Source: Alkalispirochaeta sp. (GTDB lineage Bacteria > Spirochaetota > Spirochaetia > DSM-27196 > Alkalispirochaetaceae). Taken from it: a DNA stretch of 64,000 nt. This document shows positions 28,769 to 36,280 of the stretch, in pieces. Both the position numbers and the translations under genes were made by a program. Each line of letters begins with the position of its first letter. Within the stretch, counting starts at the first letter, position 1. Below the pieces are notes generated by a model. That model was given only the letters and a program-made list of their open reading frames with translations, was not told where the DNA came from and ran no database searches. Location: NCBI GenBank assembly GCA_965242725.1, contig CBDESZ010000034.1:43195-107194 (forward strand). The letters run 5' to 3'.

Positions 28769-30055
28769 ATGTACAAATACGTCATAGACGGTGGCCATCC
28801 GATAAAGGGAACGATACAAGCATCGGGAAACAAGAACGCGGCGCTCCCCTGTATCGCGGCCACGCTCCTTACGGAGGAACCGGTCACGCTGTCCAACGTA
28901 CCCGATATCGAAGACGTCCACGTCATGGCGGAAATCCTCTCGAGTCTTGGAGTAACGGCGCGGCAAGAGAAGCCCAATACATGGCATTTCGACGCATCCA
29001 CCCTGCGTACATCGGAGATTACACCGGAAATGGCGCAGAAAATCCGTGCCTCCATTCTCTTTGCGGGCCCCCTTCTTGCGCGTACCGGTTCGGTGATCCT
29101 TCCGCCGCCGGGGGGTGACGTGATCGGACGACGGCGGCTGGATACTCATTTTCTCGCGCTGGAGGGACTGGGAGCGGAGGTTCGTCACAACGGCACATTT
29201 ATGCTGAACGCCCGGGAACTGCGGGGAGACGAGCTCTTCCTGGACGAAGCGTCGGTAACCGCCACGGAAAATGCAGTCATGGCCGCCGCCCTCGCCCGGG
29301 GCAGTACGGTGATAGAGAACGCCGCGAGTGAACCTCACGTCCAGGACCTGTGTCGCATGTTGAATCAAATGGGTGCCAAAATCACGGGAATCGGATCCAA
29401 CATCCTCAGGATCGAGGGGGTTTCCCGACTGGAGGGCACGGAGTTTGAACTGGGTGCAGATTTTATGGAAGTCGGCAGTTTTATCGGGCTGGCTGCCGTA
29501 ACCCGGGGAGATCTTACAATTCAGCGGGCGGGGGTACGAAACCTCAAAATGACGCGAATAGCCTTCAACCGCCTCGGTATACACTGGGATACCGACGGCG
29601 ATACGATCCACGTACCATCCCAGCAGCGACTACAGGTTGAGCCCGACCTGGGGGGTATGGTTCCGAAAATTGACGACAGCCCGTGGCCCGGTTTTCCCGC
29701 CGATCTGACGAGTATCATGACCGTCGTCGCAACGCAGGTGGAAGGTACGATTCTCATCCATGAAAAGATGTTCGAATCGCGAATGTTTTTTGTCGACAAA
29801 CTGATCGGGATGGGCGCGCGCATCGTCCTCTGCGATCCCCACCGTGCGGTGGTGAGCGGTCCGTCCCGCCTGAGCGGCTCTCCGCTGACCTCGCCCGATG
29901 TCCGGGCGGGTATGGCCATGGTCATTGCCGCCCTATGTGCGGAAGGTCGCAGCGTCATACACAACGTCTACCAAATAGAACGGGGATATGAGCATTTGAC
30001 GCGTCGATTACGGTCCCTGGGGGCACAGATCCAGCGGGTTACCGTTTCTGAGTGA
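28769..30055 (+). CDS. murA: UDP-N-acetylglucosamine 1-carboxyvinyltransferase
   Basis: [39 protein letters not shown]. Confidence 0.96.
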
Positions 30056-30470
30056 TTCCCCGCTCCTGATCGGCGAGTTGTGCGTTCAACGTGTCGTAGG
30101 CGTCTTTTATGCGGATAAAGGCCCGTTCTAGCTCCGCGCGCTGATGGTCGTCCAGGGCAAGGCTGGTATCGGGATGCAGATTGGTCGCCAGACGGCGGTA
30201 CACCCGTTTCAGTTCACTTCGGTTGACCGACGGTGCGACGCCCAGGATTCGACAGGAGAGGGGATCCAGAACGGCAGTTCCCCCGCTTCGGCTTTCCGCC
30301 GTGTTTCCCGATTCTCCTGATCGACGGGCGATGCGAAACTGGTCGACCAGCGAGCCCACAAGAAACCCGAAGAGCACTCCGCCTATTCCGGCGGGAATGC
30401 CTATGACGATTCCCAGGATTCTGCCGATGTGGCGTGTTCCGATCGTGGGAAACGGGAAGCGTACCTTCAT
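30039..30470 (-). CDS. Membrane-anchored J-domain protein (short DjlA-like)
   Basis: N-terminal Gly-rich TM segment; [31 protein letters not shown] overlap with the upstream gene. Confidence 0.82.
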
Positions 30471-32221
30471 GGTTCCACCCGACGCTTGGCTAGATACATA
30501 ATCGTCCCGACAAGAACGGCAAAAAAGACGACAAAGATCGCAGTAACGACTCCACCGCCGGAAAGGCGCAGGGACAGTCCATTTACGAGCAGTGAGAGCA
30601 GGAATTTTGGCACGCCCCGGGCCCACCATAAAAGAAACGGAATAAGGGGAATCACTGCGAGGGCAAAAAGTGGGGGCCGCTCCAGGTAGGCGCTCCGATG
30701 ACGCCACGCCAGGGCGACGGAACCGAAGGTCAGGACAAAAAAACCGACCAAAGCCATTATCCGTTGCGCCGCACCGTTGATTGCCGTCGCCTCGGACCGC
30801 CCAAACTCCCGGAAGAGCTCCGGTAATCCCAGGAGATCGGGCAAAGCCACGGTCGGCACGTCATACCCCCCCGTGGACAGAAGGACGATCTCCTCCACCG
30901 TAGGTACGACGGGAATGTATCCGGGTATCTCCCCTTCTCCCCCAAGCAGAACGGGGTTGTGTATGCGCCCCTCATCACTGGATCCGACATTGTCACGTTC
31001 AATGGCACGAAAAAAGAGGTTTCCTTCGATCCACTTCGCGTAGTCGGCGTGAAAATGGAGGGGGCCGTCGCGGGTATTACGATAGACCTCTACATCATAG
31101 AGAAAATCTCCCACCGGTGATTGAACAAGTCGGTCCGCGGCGATGTATTCTGAGATATCCCCACCGTGCCTGTTCTGAAAAAAGATATCGTTTCTGCTTG
31201 TAAAACTCGGAGTGCCGTAGAGCCTGGCATCCTCCACAAAAAAGGAAATCCTGCGGACCTCTTCTTCAGCGGCGGCACTGAACCGCTGAATATCCGGATC
31301 ATTCGGGGCGCGCTGTTGAAGTTCCTGAAACCTGAAAAAGGCGAGAACCAGTGCTTCGGGATTCTCTTCCGGGCTTCCCCGTGTCAGGAGCTGATACGCT
31401 TCGATCTTGTCCCGGAACAGATCGCGGGCGGGATCGTCCTGAATCTCAAAAGACTCACCCTCAATTGCATTGAGAGCCCGTGCCTGAATGACCCGGGCAT
31501 CCCGTCGACCGTCGGACATCTCCACGGCGCGGGTGGCAAAGTAATGGGCGCTGAAATAGTTACCTTCATCGTAATACCGTCGTGCACGATCCAGGAGTTC
31601 AGCGACGCTGAGCGCCCGCACTTCCGGAACACGCTCATTTGCACCGGCAAGACCACGGGCGGAACCGGACTGTCTCATTCGTGCATTGATGGAACGCGTA
31701 CTGAGTTCGCCACGAACGTCATTGAGGAACGCCTGAACTTCATCATCCGGACCCATCACCGAGAGGTAAATTTCCGCGTATCGCTGGGCGGTGTGGAGAT
31801 TTCCCGTATCCCGGGCCTGACGCGCATCATCCCAGGCCGTGCGGGCTACGCGGCTGCGGTAAAGTATCTGTTCTATACGGACATGCTGACGCGGTCCGAT
31901 CACACCGATCCACACCCCGTACAACACTCCCAGAATCAGGATGAAGATAATCACCGGCCGCGCCGCAGAGATGAGCGTACCTTTCACGCGCATGTCGAGA
32001 GGGCCGACGGCGACGGAAAAGGTGACGATCGCCGCGGAGGCGACTACCAGAGGGAAATGGCTGAAAAAGGTGACGAGCCAGGAACTGAGGAGATAGTCCC
32101 GCTCCCACTCTTCCGCAACTTCCACGATCGCCAGTGTTGAGATCGCGTCGTAGACGGCGAATCCCCCGGCAATCAACAATGAGACGACCAGTATGACGGT
32201 AAAACGCGCAGGAACGCTCAT
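30467..32221 (-). CDS. Membrane protein, 3TM + large periplasmic region + 3TM; divergent LptF/LptG-like with TPR-like insertion
   Basis: 584-aa ORF translationally coupled on both sides; the family call is pattern-based inference. Confidence 0.6.
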   Translation of the reverse strand: MSVPARFTVILVVSLLIAGGFAVYDAISTLAIVEVAEEWERDYLLSSWLVTFFSHFPLVVASAAIVTFSVAVGPLDMRVKGTLISAARPVIIFILILGVLYGVWIGVIGPRQHVRIEQILYRSRVARTAWDDARQARDTGNLHTAQRYAEIYLSVMGPDDEVQAFLNDVRGELSTRSINARMRQSGSARGLAGANERVPEVRALSVAELLDRARRYYDEGNYFSAHYFATRAVEMSDGRRDARVIQARALNAIEGESFEIQDDPARDLFRDKIEAYQLLTRGSPEENPEALVLAFFRFQELQQRAPNDPDIQRFSAAAEEEVRRISFFVEDARLYGTPSFTSRNDIFFQNRHGGDISEYIAADRLVQSPVGDFLYDVEVYRNTRDGPLHFHADYAKWIEGNLFFRAIERDNVGSSDEGRIHNPVLLGGEGEIPGYIPVVPTVEEIVLLSTGGYDVPTVALPDLLGLPELFREFGRSEATAINGAAQRIMALVGFFVLTFGSVALAWRHRSAYLERPPLFALAVIPLIPFLLWWARGVPKFLLSLLVNGLSLRLSGGGVVTAIFVVFFAVLVGTIMYLAKRRVEP

Positions 32222-33162
32222 CGAGACCGACCCTCCTCACCTATTTCCCGTTGCCACCGGCCGAGGGGGACTAAAAAGAACGATACAAACAGCAGCAAAA
32301 GGGCGATTCCGGTCCAGAGCAGCGTAAAGGGATAGACATGCAGCGTGGCCGGAAAGAACGCGGGCAGTGAAATTGCCGCCAGAAGTTCCGCGACGATCGT
32401 CTGCTCGGCCGACGAAGGAATCGCCGGAATGAGTCGGAGATATCCCACCGCCACGGCGATGTTGAGAAGTGGCCACCGGAAGAGGCGCGCAGGTGTCCAG
32501 ACTGCGAGGAGGGCCAGAACAAAGGCGCCCCAGAGATAGGACAGCTCCATGAAATCACGCTGGACCATCGAACGGTGAAGCAGCAGAAATAACGCCGTCA
32601 CCTCATTCGCCAATTTTCCGAGAAAGGACGGAACGGAACGCCACCGGAGTTCCGGGAAGTGGTCCGCCGACAGGGATGTGCCGTCGGGGAAAACGATGCG
32701 TGACGCTTCCGCGTTCCACGTACCCTTCTCATGGTGAGTGATCGTCGGGATATCACGATGGGACACGACGAGAATATCCGACAGGGCAACACCGGTGGCG
32801 GCGCCGATGCGAAGAGAATAATCGTCTCCGTTGATTATTACCCCCACGGGTATTCGCCGTTGCAGCCCGCCGTCCGGTACATTCCGGCCGGCCAGGGAAT
32901 GGATTGCAGATATTCCAAAAAGAAGAACTCCAATCGAAACACCCAGGACCAGAAGAAACAACCAGGAGTTCCGGGACGTCCGCACACCCCGGAGGACCGA
33001 GGCAAGGACCGCGGGAAACAGGGCTGCCGTCAGGATCGGTCCGGCCGCGGCCAGGACGCTTGCCGTCGCCGGATCGTAGAGCCATACACCGAAAGCAATA
33101 AGCACCCCAAAGGCGACCATATGGAACAGGAATACGACCGGCACCGTCATGAGGTGTTTCAC
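32218..33162 (-). CDS. Membrane protein, 3TM + beta-rich loop + 3TM; divergent LptF/LptG-like
   Basis: 314-aa hydrophobic ORF; loop GVIING..LRIG..LSDILVV..HEKGTWNAEASRIVFPDG. Confidence 0.6.
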   Translation of the reverse strand: MKHLMTVPVVFLFHMVAFGVLIAFGVWLYDPATASVLAAAGPILTAALFPAVLASVLRGVRTSRNSWLFLLVLGVSIGVLLFGISAIHSLAGRNVPDGGLQRRIPVGVIINGDDYSLRIGAATGVALSDILVVSHRDIPTITHHEKGTWNAEASRIVFPDGTSLSADHFPELRWRSVPSFLGKLANEVTALFLLLHRSMVQRDFMELSYLWGAFVLALLAVWTPARLFRWPLLNIAVAVGYLRLIPAIPSSAEQTIVAELLAAISLPAFFPATLHVYPFTLLWTGIALLLLFVSFFLVPLGRWQREIGEEGRSR

Positions 33163-33182: not shown

Positions 33183-33437
33183 TTGACCACGAGTTTTCCA
33201 CATCTTTTCCACACCCTTCGGCGTCGGATTGGCTACCAAATTGTAATGGCTATGTAGCAAATTGACACAATATTTTCCCGCCATACCTCTTGACAGGAAG
33301 TAAATGCTTATATGGTATAGATTTAAATTCTCGACTCTTCGCCGTACAGGCAGCGTTATGTGGTTTGCATATACGGAAGATCCATGGTAAAGGCTTATAC
33401 CATCAAAAGATCTGGAGTTATCCACTACTTTTCCACA
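33183..33437. other. DnaA-box cluster with AT-rich core (oriC-like, or datA/DARS-like locus)
   Basis: TTGACCACG 33183, TTTTCCACA 33194 and 33205, TTATCCACT 33418, TTTTCCACA 33429; all co-oriented, 11-bp period within each array; 33301-33330 has 6 G+C in 30 nt. Confidence 0.65.
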
Positions 33438-34069
33438 TTCAAATTAGAAATATTTACCGTCTCGGTAACGAGTCGGTATCCCTTGCCCCTGACAGTCTCT
33501 ATCAACCGTCCGTAGGAGCCCAGTACACGCCGCAATCGGGAAATCTGAATGTCAATCGCTCGTGATGATGTGAGTTGTCCGGTTCGTACATTTCCGCTCA
33601 CTTCGGGGTTCATTACAAGTTCAAACAGGCGTTCCCGTTCCACCGCGACGCCGGGGCGTTGAGAAAGGGCATGCCACAGGACGGCGTGAGTACGTGAGAG
33701 AACAAAGCTTTCGTCTCCGATAGTAATTACGTTACCCATAACCTCACGCCGTTTTTGAAGGAGGCGGTAGACCCGGACCGTGAGTTCAATCTCCGTCCAG
33801 GGAGAACACAGGTATTCGTCCGCACCGAGGAGAAATACCCGCTCCATGTCCTCCGGCACTCCGTAACCGCACCTGATTGAGCTTGCAGCCTGATCCCACA
33901 AGTCGGTACCGGCAATTCCGCCGGGTGCAACCACTACATCCGGTTTTCGTTCAACATGGTGTGACGCGAGATGGAGCGGTACGATTATCGTATTGGAGTC
34001 GTTCCGGAGCGCCTTTGCTGCCTTTCGAACTGACGGCGAACCGTCGTCCAGTACCAGCAGAAAGCCCAT
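33425..34069 (-). CDS. OmpR/PhoB-type winged-helix regulator with atypical (pseudo) receiver domain
   Basis: LLVLDD..GADEYL..P; wHTH SRAIDIQISRLRRVL..IETVRGKGYRL. Confidence 0.8.
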   Translation of the reverse strand: MGFLLVLDDGSPSVRKAAKALRNDSNTIIVPLHLASHHVERKPDVVVAPGGIAGTDLWDQAASSIRCGYGVPEDMERVFLLGADEYLCSPWTEIELTVRVYRLLQKRREVMGNVITIGDESFVLSRTHAVLWHALSQRPGVAVERERLFELVMNPEVSGNVRTGQLTSSRAIDIQISRLRRVLGSYGRLIETVRGKGYRLVTETVNISNLNVEK

Positions 34070-34077
34070 CTGCGTCC

Positions 34078-34848
34078 TTAGGAATCACCTTCTCCGGAGT
34101 TCGGAGACTGTTCCTGGTTGATGGATCGTTTCAGTTCTTCCAGCGACCGATCAATATCGTCACCGGCCGTGACCGTCTCACCGGCGTTGATTTTCTTTCT
34201 GAGATCTTCCAGGAGGGCGTCGCCGTCCGGCCGCTCCAGCGCGGCAATCTGGTCTGCAAGACTCTTGTCGCTGTTTCCCTGATCCAGTTCCGCGAGGGTG
34301 TCGCTTTCTATTTCCAGTTGCTCCACCCGTTTTGACATTTCGTCAAAGGCGTCGAAAGCGGAGGTATCACCGAGCCCGTGAATGAGTTCCTGGATCTTCT
34401 TTTGCGCTTCCGCGCGCTTGGCCCGCGCCACGAGAAGGTTCTTTTTGCGTTGCGCTTCTTCAATCCGATCCTGAAGTTCCCGGAGGGACGATTTCAACTG
34501 TTCCACCGCGGCGTGCTGTTTGTCGTACTGACCCGCCAGTTGCTCCGCGTATTCCGATTCACGCTGCTTGCGAACCAGCGCCTCCCGGGCGAGGTCCTCT
34601 TTTCCCGCTTTCAACGCCACCACGGCCCGACCTTCCCATTCCTCGGCCCGTCGGCGCTGCTCCTCGACGTGACGCTGGAGGCGTTTCTCTTCAGTGATCG
34701 CCGTAGCCACATTGCGCTTGGCATCGGTGAGCTGCTTGTTCATATCGAGAATGAGCTGATTGAGCATTTTTTCGGGATTTTCGGCTCTCCGCACGGCGTC
34801 ATTCACGTTGGATCTGAGCAGCCTGCGCAATCGTTCAAACATTCCCAT
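34078..34848 (-). CDS. pspA: PspA/IM30 family protein
   Basis: MGMFERLRRLLRSNVN..AENPEKMLNQ..A..ALKAGKEDLAREAL; coiled coil. Confidence 0.92.
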   Translation of the reverse strand: MGMFERLRRLLRSNVNDAVRRAENPEKMLNQLILDMNKQLTDAKRNVATAITEEKRLQRHVEEQRRRAEEWEGRAVVALKAGKEDLAREALVRKQRESEYAEQLAGQYDKQHAAVEQLKSSLRELQDRIEEAQRKKNLLVARAKRAEAQKKIQELIHGLGDTSAFDAFDEMSKRVEQLEIESDTLAELDQGNSDKSLADQIAALERPDGDALLEDLRKKINAGETVTAGDDIDRSLEELKRSINQEQSPNSGEGDS

Positions 34849-34872
34849 TACCGTTTCTACCGTCTCTCCATA

Positions 34873-35427
34873 TCATCCGAGAAAGACTTGTCCGCTCGCA
34901 TCGATGGCGAGGATCGTCTTGCAGTTTGAACATCGAAATCGTCCCGGTTTGGACGCCTTCAATTTTGTCGAACAAATGGGACATTTAAAAATCTTCGGAA
35001 AGACTTCCGACGACTGCTGGGCCTGGCCACCTTTGGAAAAGTGTTCAACCGCATCGTCCAGGGAGTCCTTGATATGGAAGAATTGCGAAAAACCGAGAAG
35101 CTGAAACACCTCATACACTTTTGGCTGTATTTCCAGAAGGACCAGATCGCCGCCCTTCGGTTTTACCGCTTTGAGGAATGCCGTGAATGAACCGATTCCG
35201 GTACTGGAAACGTAATTCAATCCGCCGCAGTGAAAGATGAGGCGACTGAACCCTGATTCAATTGCCCGATTCACCCGTTTCTGAAAAAAATTGGAGTTGT
35301 AGGTATCAATATATCCGGTGAGATAAAGGACTACACAACCTTCGACGCTGTCGATTTTTTGCAGCCTGATCTTAAGACTTTCATCTTTTTCTTCATCAAA
35401 GCCCGGAACGATGTCGTTATTGTTCAT
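34873..35427 (-). CDS. STAS anti-sigma-factor antagonist with C-terminal zinc ribbon
   Basis: LTGYIDTYN..LNYVSSTGIG..EVFQLLGF; CPIC..CSNC. Confidence 0.88.
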   Translation of the reverse strand: MNNNDIVPGFDEEKDESLKIRLQKIDSVEGCVVLYLTGYIDTYNSNFFQKRVNRAIESGFSRLIFHCGGLNYVSSTGIGSFTAFLKAVKPKGGDLVLLEIQPKVYEVFQLLGFSQFFHIKDSLDDAVEHFSKGGQAQQSSEVFPKIFKCPICSTKLKASKPGRFRCSNCKTILAIDASGQVFLG

Positions 35428-35521
35428 ACTCGTCGCTTCTTCCTGGATTTTTTAATAGTAGAGTGGCGCTCGGAAATTGTCAAACCGCGGCTCTCCCCCC
35501 TGACGCCCCTGGCGCGTTCCA

Positions 35522-36280
35522 TTACAGCAATCCCTGATCGATGGTAATAATCGACCCGTTTATATCCGGTTCTTCGGCAAGTATGAGCTCATTTATTAGC
35601 CGAGCCACACGTTCCGGCTGAATAAGGGACTCCCGCGGCGATTTTCGCCGCGCTTCCTCCCTGTCCGCCTGGGAGAGGTACTCAGTATCCACATATCCCG
35701 GAGATATCAGATTTACCGTTACATTTTTTCCCCGTGTGTCGGCGGCGGCGGATTTGCAGAGGCTTACAACTCCCGCCTTTGCCGCGGCGTACGCCGGAAT
35801 GCCCCGGAAGCCCCGGTGCTGGTCGGCGCGGGGACCGCCGAAAAGGATGATACGCCCCCACTTCCGTTCAACCATTTCCGGCAGATATCGGGAGACAAGA
35901 ATTCCCGGCAGGGTGAGGTTCAATTCTACAACGGTGCTCCATACGTCGGGCGAAGTGGTACCCAGGGAGGAGTACTCGACGGGCCCCATGGCGACGACGA
36001 GAATATCCACAGTTCCAAGGTCATCGAGGACGGGCAGAATATCCTCTCCTCGCGTGAGACGGCGAAACAGGGGAGATGCCGAACCGCCGTGGTCCCGTAT
36101 GTACTGAACGACCCGATCAAGCCGCTGCCGATCGTTCCCTCCATGACAGATGACATGGGCCCCCTGCAATGCGAGGGCAACGGTTACGGCACGACCGATA
36201 CCGCCGCTGCCGCCGATAATCAGAGCACGACGACCGGATAGACGGGAAGTATGATAATCCGCCCTCGTAAGGAGTCCCAT
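35522..36280 (-). CDS. Short-chain dehydrogenase/reductase
   Basis: IGGSGGIG, YAAAK, VNLISPGYVDT. Confidence 0.88.
   Translation of the reverse strand: MGLLTRADYHTSRLSGRRALIIGGSGGIGRAVTVALALQGAHVICHGGNDRQRLDRVVQYIRDHGGSASPLFRRLTRGEDILPVLDDLGTVDILVVAMGPVEYSSLGTTSPDVWSTVVELNLTLPGILVSRYLPEMVERKWGRIILFGGPRADQHRGFRGIPAYAAAKAGVVSLCKSAAADTRGKNVTVNLISPGYVDTEYLSQADREEARRKSPRESLIQPERVARLINELILAEEPDINGSIITIDQGLL

Follow-up and report, generated by a model that had tools for sequence, protein, structure and literature searches.

The 64,000-nucleotide stretch of Alkalispirochaeta sp. DNA considered here (NCBI assembly GCA_965242725.1, contig CBDESZ010000034.1, positions 43,195 to 107,194; hereafter the window) carries two adjacent genes, A and B, which belong to a spirochaete-specific second pair of proteins with a predicted LptF/LptG fold. 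The pair is real, conserved and mostly unannotated; both members have an LptF/G fold in predicted structures, and the pair lacks the ATPase-coupling signature of the canonical LptB2FG complex. That A and B are a divergent LptF/G-fold pair, paralogous to a separate canonical lptFG, is close to certain on the basis of the models, and the pair is likely to serve a different cargo.

A, B and a third gene, J, are minus-strand open reading frames (ORFs) at 33162–32218, 32221–30467 and 30470–30039, respectively, and ATGA overlaps are present at both the A/B and the B/J junction. A (314 aa, GTG start) is the first gene of the pair, i.e., it occupies the lptF position; B is 584 aa long and J 143 aa. 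The J start, the ATG at 30470, was set by alignment of relatives, while the ORF finder's 222-aa J frame begins within B. An original prediction made from this DNA had described three coupled minus-strand genes with no ATPase in the operon. Both statements hold, as no ATP-binding cassette (ABC) ATPase adjoins A, B or J in the window, and all the motifs it quoted were found in the translations. The pair and its periplasmic parts are as follows (TM, transmembrane helix; TPR, tetratricopeptide repeat; AF2, AlphaFold2).

32218–33162, minus strand: gene A, 314-aa reduced LptF/G-fold permease with six TM and a small beta-taco (AF2, Foldseek, VIA, hhalign).
32668–32838, minus strand: periplasmic beta-taco of A, residues 109–165, six strands, shorter than in canonical LptF/G (DSSP on the model).
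30467–32221, minus strand: gene B, 584-aa LptG-like permease with a periplasmic TPR insertion (AF2 model, VIA, hhalign, PF03739 in relatives).
31217–31885, minus strand: TPR-like insertion of B, approximately residues 113–335, predicted periplasmic (TPR_2/TPR_14 matches, structure matches, conservation).
30911–31198, minus strand: beta-taco (beta-jellyroll) domain of B, residues 342–437 (DSSP on the model; alignment to the LptG periplasmic domain).

The B model (pLDDT, the predicted local distance difference test, 91.6; 150 sequences) aligns with 8ufg_G over 311 of 327 residues [VIA Z 17.9, root-mean-square deviation (rmsd) 5.0], and the first unrelated entry after the Lpt permeases comes at Z 9.9; the ten best Foldseek matches are Lpt permeases throughout. 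Comparison of profiles with hhalign gives 96% to spirochaete LptG. The B profile also reaches solved LptG chains at E ~4e-6, with matches on both sides of the insert. Moreover, with E values up to 0.1 accepted, 20 of 55 B relatives show a PF03739 (LptF_LptG) match (best 2.6e-13), and in the ESM Atlas PF03739 members make up 19% of a cluster next to B. Neither window protein reaches the curated PF03739 cut-off or matches a Pfam or NCBIfam LptF/G family. Hence, of the checks that the original prediction had proposed, the Pfam one is positive in some B relatives and negative for both window proteins, while AlphaFold and Foldseek recovered the LptF/G fold and beta domain for A and B alike.

Both models show three TM, a periplasmic part and three further TM, the topology first read from the letters. 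Charge bias places the N-termini and the TM2-3 and TM4-5 loops in the cytoplasm, and the TPR and beta domains are therefore predicted to be periplasmic. The expected jellyroll strands are seen in both proteins, as the six strands at 109–165 in A and as the strand-rich domain at 342–437 in B. The TPR-like insert, put at about 200 aa by the original prediction, is a stretch of about 220 aa of helices (~113–335) between TM3 and the beta-taco of B; TPR_2 and TPR_14 match 14 of 55 B relatives, and structure matches reach Z 7–10. A Hop/Sti1-like identity for the TPR was rejected as generic (Z 8–9, rmsd 12–20). The most conserved columns of B lie in the distal half of this insertion: residues 201–332 hold 19 of the 46 columns conserved at 75% or more (K272, 98%), the beta domain 14, and TM1-3 just 3 of 112, while the proline ending TM3, P110, is kept in 97%. 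Two cases deserve separate mention: one B gene (L020; G005:C187) is broken into two frames near residue 498 by a frameshift or sequencing error, and one Brachyspira-type genome (86% complete, 4% contamination) carries two full-length copies (G293:C199 and C173).

The A model (pLDDT 91.2; 53 sequences) also retrieves LptF/G throughout its ten best Foldseek matches (best E 3.8e-5) and in the top 16 VIA entries (8frp_G: Z 12.2, rmsd 3.6, 187 aligned). In a wide structure search, the top three were LptF at Z 10.8–9.5 and unrelated rows started at 8.8, a modest margin for a helical protein that is backed by the profile alignment. The full A profile scores 86.5% to spirochaete LptG and 71.6% to LptF, and a profile with ten rows left out scores 47% and 37%, respectively. 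Reversed-sequence controls gave 0.3% vs 37–47% for the leave-out A profile, 72–87% for the full one and 96% for B, so the similarity goes beyond chance. None of the 53 A family members matches PF03739, and the alignment found nothing relevant among Protein Data Bank sequences (best E 0.048); the ESM Atlas places A at 0.86 beside a cluster with 27% PF03739 members, which is a lead only. The beta-taco of A is reduced and differently angled (whole-chain rmsd 7–14), and residues 99–168 match LptC chain 9dor_C weakly (Z 4.3, rmsd 3.5, 69 aligned). Conservation of A is low (mean column identity 17%), the Z scores of A to LptF and LptG are tied, and the A and B profiles show no mutual similarity (2.3%).

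Canonical lptF-lptG lies elsewhere in the same genome (contig C18, 279967–282287), as does a single lptC-lptA-lptB locus (C17, 45509–47341). A–B is thus a second pair, which answers the earlier call to look for a separate canonical lptFG. LpxC was not found in this genome (92% complete). Of 40 near relatives, 39 have B, and the B profile matches 155 of 301 genomes of the phylum at 1e-5. Matches of 1.4e-14 or better, here called strong, occur in 126 of 300 other spirochaete genomes; weaker ones were dropped, being likely matches to TPR or canonical LptG. Such counts include kin and are not independent. By family at 1e-5, B is found in 33/34 (f12, with Treponema denticola as a member by record name), 7/7 (f15, Borrelia), 14/14 (f26) and 35/37 (f32, with Brachyspira members) genomes, and in 1/53 (f27, weak), 0/11 (f30) and 0/2 (f16). 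PF03739 also matches in 125 of the 126 genomes with strong B; canonical LptF/G without strong B is seen in 123 genomes and neither in 51. The one exception, a genome with strong B among the 52 of 301 that have no PF03739 match (f30, 0/11), is 85% complete; the other 51 also have no strong B match.

No A–B pair was found in G134, a complete treponeme genome of 1.14 Mb that has retained canonical lptFG and that we infer to belong to the T. pallidum group. There and in two further genomes (G176, G267), the A and B profiles give short TPR-type matches or nothing, so the pair is not found rather than proven absent. A candidate hidden B in G134 (C1:634861, weak PF03739 match) proved to be a LolE/MacB-type permease, and the STAS gene of that genome is followed by nusG and ribosomal genes instead of the pair. 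An A-profile match elsewhere (G212:C1:1225520) was rejected as an unrelated ORF with a single N-terminal TM.

Few homologues came from word-indexed searches (9 and 4 proteins); a homologue named Alkalispirochaeta americana is 34% identical, and a plasmid search gave no match. Of ten B queries, seven were present in the sequence collection, and six of these seven clusters are named only "hypothetical", "uncharacterized" or "tetratricopeptide repeat"; the exception is a Gracilinema B automatically named "LptF/LptG family permease". We found no published description of the A–B pair in a search of openly accessible papers and preprint texts; a text search of the supplement of PMC4370689 gave no match.

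Some canonical loci also show features of their own. Canonical LptF is 417–429 aa long in several spirochaetes (L001:1453–2727, L107, L109, L110, L116), with an extra helical insert before TM4 that fits the periplasmic "stalk" reported for BB0807. On C18, one open frame immediately before canonical lptF (L001:11–1447, plus strand) combines a PNPase-like C-terminal part with dUTPase-like sequence, named here by sequence appearance; it is a fusion or a lost stop.

The pairing of the two genes agrees with the synteny expected for A with B. We fetched 57 genomes, one of which is cut by a contig end; in all 56 assessable ones a same-strand ORF of 255–362 aa precedes B, and the iterated A profile found 45 of these. 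The A–B gap is –17 to +26 nt in 54 genomes, although starts were picked near the upstream stop, so the gaps are not independent evidence of coupling. The leave-out A profile gives 95% for an f26-type group and 91% for L058. A multi-TM ORF lies upstream of B in 10 of 15 deeper loci; five of these ORFs score at least 86%, one 62% and four at most 13%. In all five Brachyspiraceae loci B stands alone, with no upstream multi-TM ORF. Three Brachyspiraceae genomes have an A-like gene beside ribF: one (L092) scores 93% against A, and L100 and L101 link to the L092-type gene over their full length (E 0.02–0.04) but score below 15% against A itself. A single-protein query found no A-like gene in three of five Brachyspira genomes. 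At five Brachyspiraceae loci (L077–L080, L090), B lies between a small putative lipoprotein gene (139–146 aa) and an rsmA-like gene. A and B likely form an inner-membrane heterodimer, for which the gene pairing speaks indirectly.

By synteny, B is the orthologue of Borrelia BB0353, in a series of genes in which BB0355 is presumably CarD. The basis is gene order and sizes in Borrelia, which fit BB0359, BB0358 ... BB0352 of Lin 2012 (PMC3485029). The transposon library of that study has no insertion between 362,288 and 366,717, across BB0353–BB0357. The library is not saturating, with 66% of chromosomal genes free of insertions, and the gap is a weak hint of essentiality. In four of four Borrelia loci (L025–L028), a 367–378-aa putative lipoprotein gene of BB0352 size converges on B. 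The BB0352-size gene has its only insertion at 97% of the gene, and the clone was mostly negative in mice (1/15 and 0/15 sites in two rows; PMC3485029).

Coupling to the ATPase is where the pair departs from canonical LptB2FG. The cytoplasmic features concerned are the following.

32965–32979, minus strand: TM2-TM3 link of A, residues 62–66, coupling helix deleted (model helices 40–62 and 66–94, 3-residue link).
31961–32008, minus strand: cytoplasmic loop 1 of B, residues 72–87, degenerate coupling region of variable length (150-row alignment, model).
32470–32499, minus strand: cytoplasmic loop 2 motif of A, W-x3-R-x-T-R-W-P (W230 in 47/53, R226 in 33/53, R229 in 28/53).
30692–30709, minus strand: cytoplasmic loop 2 motif of B, G/A-W-x-x-R-S with R509 (150-row alignment; loop alignment to LptG).

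The canonical complex has a coupling helix with a glutamate (E84/E88) in both subunits; A–B has neither conserved glutamate. In A, hhalign puts a gap across the canonical coupling segment, and the link is short in each of 18 family rows inspected of 53. In B, residues 72–87 form no full helix in the model, and glutamate is the commonest residue in no column (it never exceeds 16 of 150 in the columns displayed), although 72 of 150 rows have one somewhere within 70–84, at scattered positions. The TM2-TM3 segment of B varies between 47 and 59 residues, whereas in canonical spirochaete LptF (n = 19) and LptG (n = 16) it is always 58, with the glutamate in 35 of 35. The suspicion that the coupling helix was shortened or absent in both proteins was therefore correct. 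These glutamates have been called strictly conserved, and in an Escherichia coli double Glu-to-Ala mutant ATPase activity is down to ~0.15% and LptB binding is weak (PMC5082905).

Loop 2, the best-conserved part of A, retains the basic residue of canonical complexes (R292/R301) in B as well as in A, the equivalence coming from profile alignment; R509 of B is R in 136 and K in 8 of 150 rows. LptG R301 contacts the LptB-bound nucleotide and is essential, as is LptF R292 (PMC6744409). No ABC ATPase was recognisable in the 45 commonest neighbour clusters, judged by their first 70 residues. In a Borrelia-type genome (G198), one of 12 ABC-ATPase genes is LptB and the others are ABC-F-like or adjoin membrane genes of their own; at E 1e-8 no orphan ATPase besides LptB was found there, and weaker ATPases could escape. 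The lost coupling features, the retained R509 and the missing orphan ATPase suggest that the pair either uses LptB in an unusual way, for which the chances are modest, or uses no ATPase, which we tentatively rate slightly higher; the data do not separate the two firmly.

In comparison with LptF/LptG of LptB2FG(C) (PF03739; 8ufg, 6mit, 9doh), A–B thus shares the predicted six-TM bundle with beta-taco, the tandem order, the proline ending TM3 and the basic loop-2 residue. It differs in the missing coupling glutamates, in A's deleted coupling helix and short beta-taco, in the ~220-aa insert of B, in identities of 7–15% to solved chains, and in coexisting with a canonical pair in a genome where LpxC was not found. 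The Borrelia Lpt system offers a comparison in the same pathway and phylum, with an LPS (lipopolysaccharide)-free context and a disputed cargo. It consists of BB0464-0466, BB0807/0808 and BB0838, with BB0807/0808 named LptF/G (PMC10353723; 10.1101/2022.12.21.521298), and Borrelia has no LPS (PMC10353723). Unlike BB0807/0808, A–B maps by synteny to BB0354/BB0353, genes that appear as "hypothetical protein" (BB_0353, BB_0354; PMC6711536).

The reading we tentatively favour as a whole is that A–B is a loading dock for the Lpt bridge, derived from LptFG and uncoupled from the ATPase. It starts from what the analysis shows: both models have the fold, a canonical lptFG exists separately, A and B are conserved as a pair, and the coupling glutamate is lost from B and the whole helix from A. 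A and B would dimerise as LptF and LptG do, around a lipid cavity, with two beta-tacos in the periplasm that would join LptC/LptA. The conserved periplasmic TPR may bind protein, either the polypeptide of a surface lipoprotein or a periplasmic partner, and so set the choice of cargo. With normal coupling to the LptB ATPase likely lost, acylated cargo would pass to the one LptC-LptA-LptD bridge with no ordinary ABC power stroke behind it; either canonical LptB2FG, by pushing on that bridge, or downhill binding might supply the energy. The TPR, together with reports of Lpt-dependent surface-lipoprotein export (10.1101/2022.12.21.521298; 10.64898/2026.10.03.756453; PMC13692018), suggests lipoproteins as a possible cargo. 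A narrower version, in which A–B is the missing inner-membrane entry of a spirochaete surface-lipoprotein pathway, with the TPR reading the cargo, the acyl chains being put onto the Lpt bridge and canonical LptB2FG handling glycolipid, would agree with Borrelia having kept the pair despite its reduced genome and with the pair not having been found in G134; we consider this version unlikely.

Several points weigh against the loading dock. Extraction from a membrane is uphill, and no LptFG is known to work without ATP. Leptospires have surface lipoproteins, and the pair was not found, save for one weak match, in the 53 genomes of f27, which we infer to be Leptospira-like. The conservation of A is low, as its mean column identity shows, and the Borrelia upstream gene matches the leave-out A profile weakly (5.5%, E 0.007 over 256 colinear columns; reversed, 0.12%), so that position, size and topology are the basis for calling it BB0354. 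In B, the loop-2 arginine is retained in the loop whose arginine touches the LptB-bound nucleotide in LptG, which argues for a kept ATPase contact. Caulobacter LptF2G2, also without an ATPase of its own, shares LptB. Finally, the role of LptD in Borrelia surface lipoproteins is itself disputed (PMC13692018).

In the strongest alternative, which we rate slightly below the loading dock, A–B might work as an additional ATP-driven extractor, making use of the only LptB by way of its loop-2 arginines and what is left of loop 1 in B. Its cargo would be a class unlike that of canonical LptFG, e.g., one glycolipid class or lipoproteins. In addition to R509, the R/W motif in loop 2 of A and the essential R292 and R301 of LptF and LptG, it is consistent with B being nested within genomes that carry canonical Lpt, with the lack of an orphan ATPase in G198, and with the Caulobacter sphingolipid transporter LptF2/LptG2, an additional LptFG pair that has no ATPase of its own, lies in a one-LptB genome and pulls down the sole LptB (10.64898/2026.04.12.717747). 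A model of LptF2/LptG2 superposes on LptB2FG with an rmsd of 1.45 A; the pair binds LptB, its genes are part of the biosynthesis locus of its cargo, and the accessible part of the report mentions no TPR insert (10.64898/2026.04.12.717747). In contrast, A–B has neither the coupling features nor cargo-defining neighbours. The strictly conserved glutamate is missing (PMC5082905), A has no coupling helix, and the B loop-1 segment does not keep the canonical length. Moreover, the loop-2 position is itself variable in canonical spirochaete proteins (LptF, R in 11 of 19; LptG, K in 11 and R in 3 of 16), so that the W-x-x-R of B may serve another role.

It is also conceivable, although unlikely, that the pair has ceased to transport cargo, or merely allows a passive flow of bulk lipid, and acts as an envelope scaffold or lipid-state sensor, with the TPR recruiting a periplasmic partner. 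Conservation in the TPR and loop 2 instead of the cavity-lining TM1-3, and the short beta-taco of A, would suit such a role, as would the neighbourhood. Upstream of the pair, the window (33425–36280, minus strand) holds genes for an SDR, a STAS protein with a Zn-ribbon, PspA and an OmpR-type regulator without a Pfam receiver match. This block precedes the pair in many order-level relatives, where the pair thus follows pspA, the response-regulator-like gene and the STAS gene; the latter is also upstream of the pair in several Treponemataceae. However, this stress neighbourhood is not seen at the Borrelia and Brachyspira loci, and the phylum as a whole has conserved both beta-tacos and both six-TM bundles, with the 14 well-conserved columns in the B beta domain.

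A further possibility, following a speculation of the original prediction, is a three-part system in which J would recruit DnaK to drive or assemble the extractor.

30039–30470, minus strand: DjlA-type J protein, 143 aa, Gly-rich TM and J domain with HPD (PF00226, E 3.3e-10).

The ATGA coupling, the adjacency of J to B in 34 of 55 assessable genomes, the missing normal ATPase coupling in A and B and the HPD, which is intact as predicted (residues 99–101) and invariant in 30 of 30 aligned sequences, are in its favour. Like DjlA, a TM-TerB-J co-chaperone, J has an N-terminal Gly-rich TM and a C-terminal J domain; unlike DjlA (~270 aa), it has no TerB-like centre, and DjlA, its best NCBIfam match, is below cut-off (43 vs 162 bits). 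In this genome a ~120-aa TerB-like middle has been lost in frame, possibly as an assembly artefact; the region is kept in 28 of 29 aligned relatives (246–297 aa), and TerB matches 5 of 30 relatives. A similarly short form occurs at L062:5535–5957, and murA converges on J in the window. Against a role in the system, the pair has no J next to it in 21 of 55 genomes or in any of the 15 deeper loci, including four of four Borrelia and six of six Treponemataceae loci. Of 10 outside genomes, 9 gave J-profile matches mainly in the J domain, and in G198 the one 249-aa ORF matching profile positions 122–254 is unlinked to the pair. The J domain is predicted to be cytoplasmic, so that the membrane would separate the TPR of B from DnaK. 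A DnaK-linked extractor is thus very improbable, and J is best read as a lineage-restricted neighbour, conserved mainly within this order, and a passenger rather than a core part. Least credible is that A and B are unpaired, B mixing with canonical LptF or homodimerising and A being a decaying paralogue: the solitary B of the five Brachyspiraceae loci, the three Brachyspira genomes without a detected A and the lack of A–B profile similarity fit it, but the genes are adjacent in every assessable genome and in 10 of 15 deeper loci, and the A-like gene is kept even where it is unlinked.

The route by which glycolipids and surface lipoproteins reach the outer membrane of LPS-free spirochaetes is debated, and the cargo assigned to the Lpt pathway differs between two Borrelia studies (PMC13692018). 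The published models examined use one LptFG pair; a second pair, from Borrelia to Brachyspira, would allow two cargo streams on one bridge, and two specific Borrelia genes, BB0353 and BB0354 (by synteny), are now named for study. The loss of a coupling glutamate described as strictly conserved would widen what the LptFG fold can do. If A–B is indeed the entry point for surface lipoproteins, it would be the first LptFG-fold complex to work without normal ATPase coupling.

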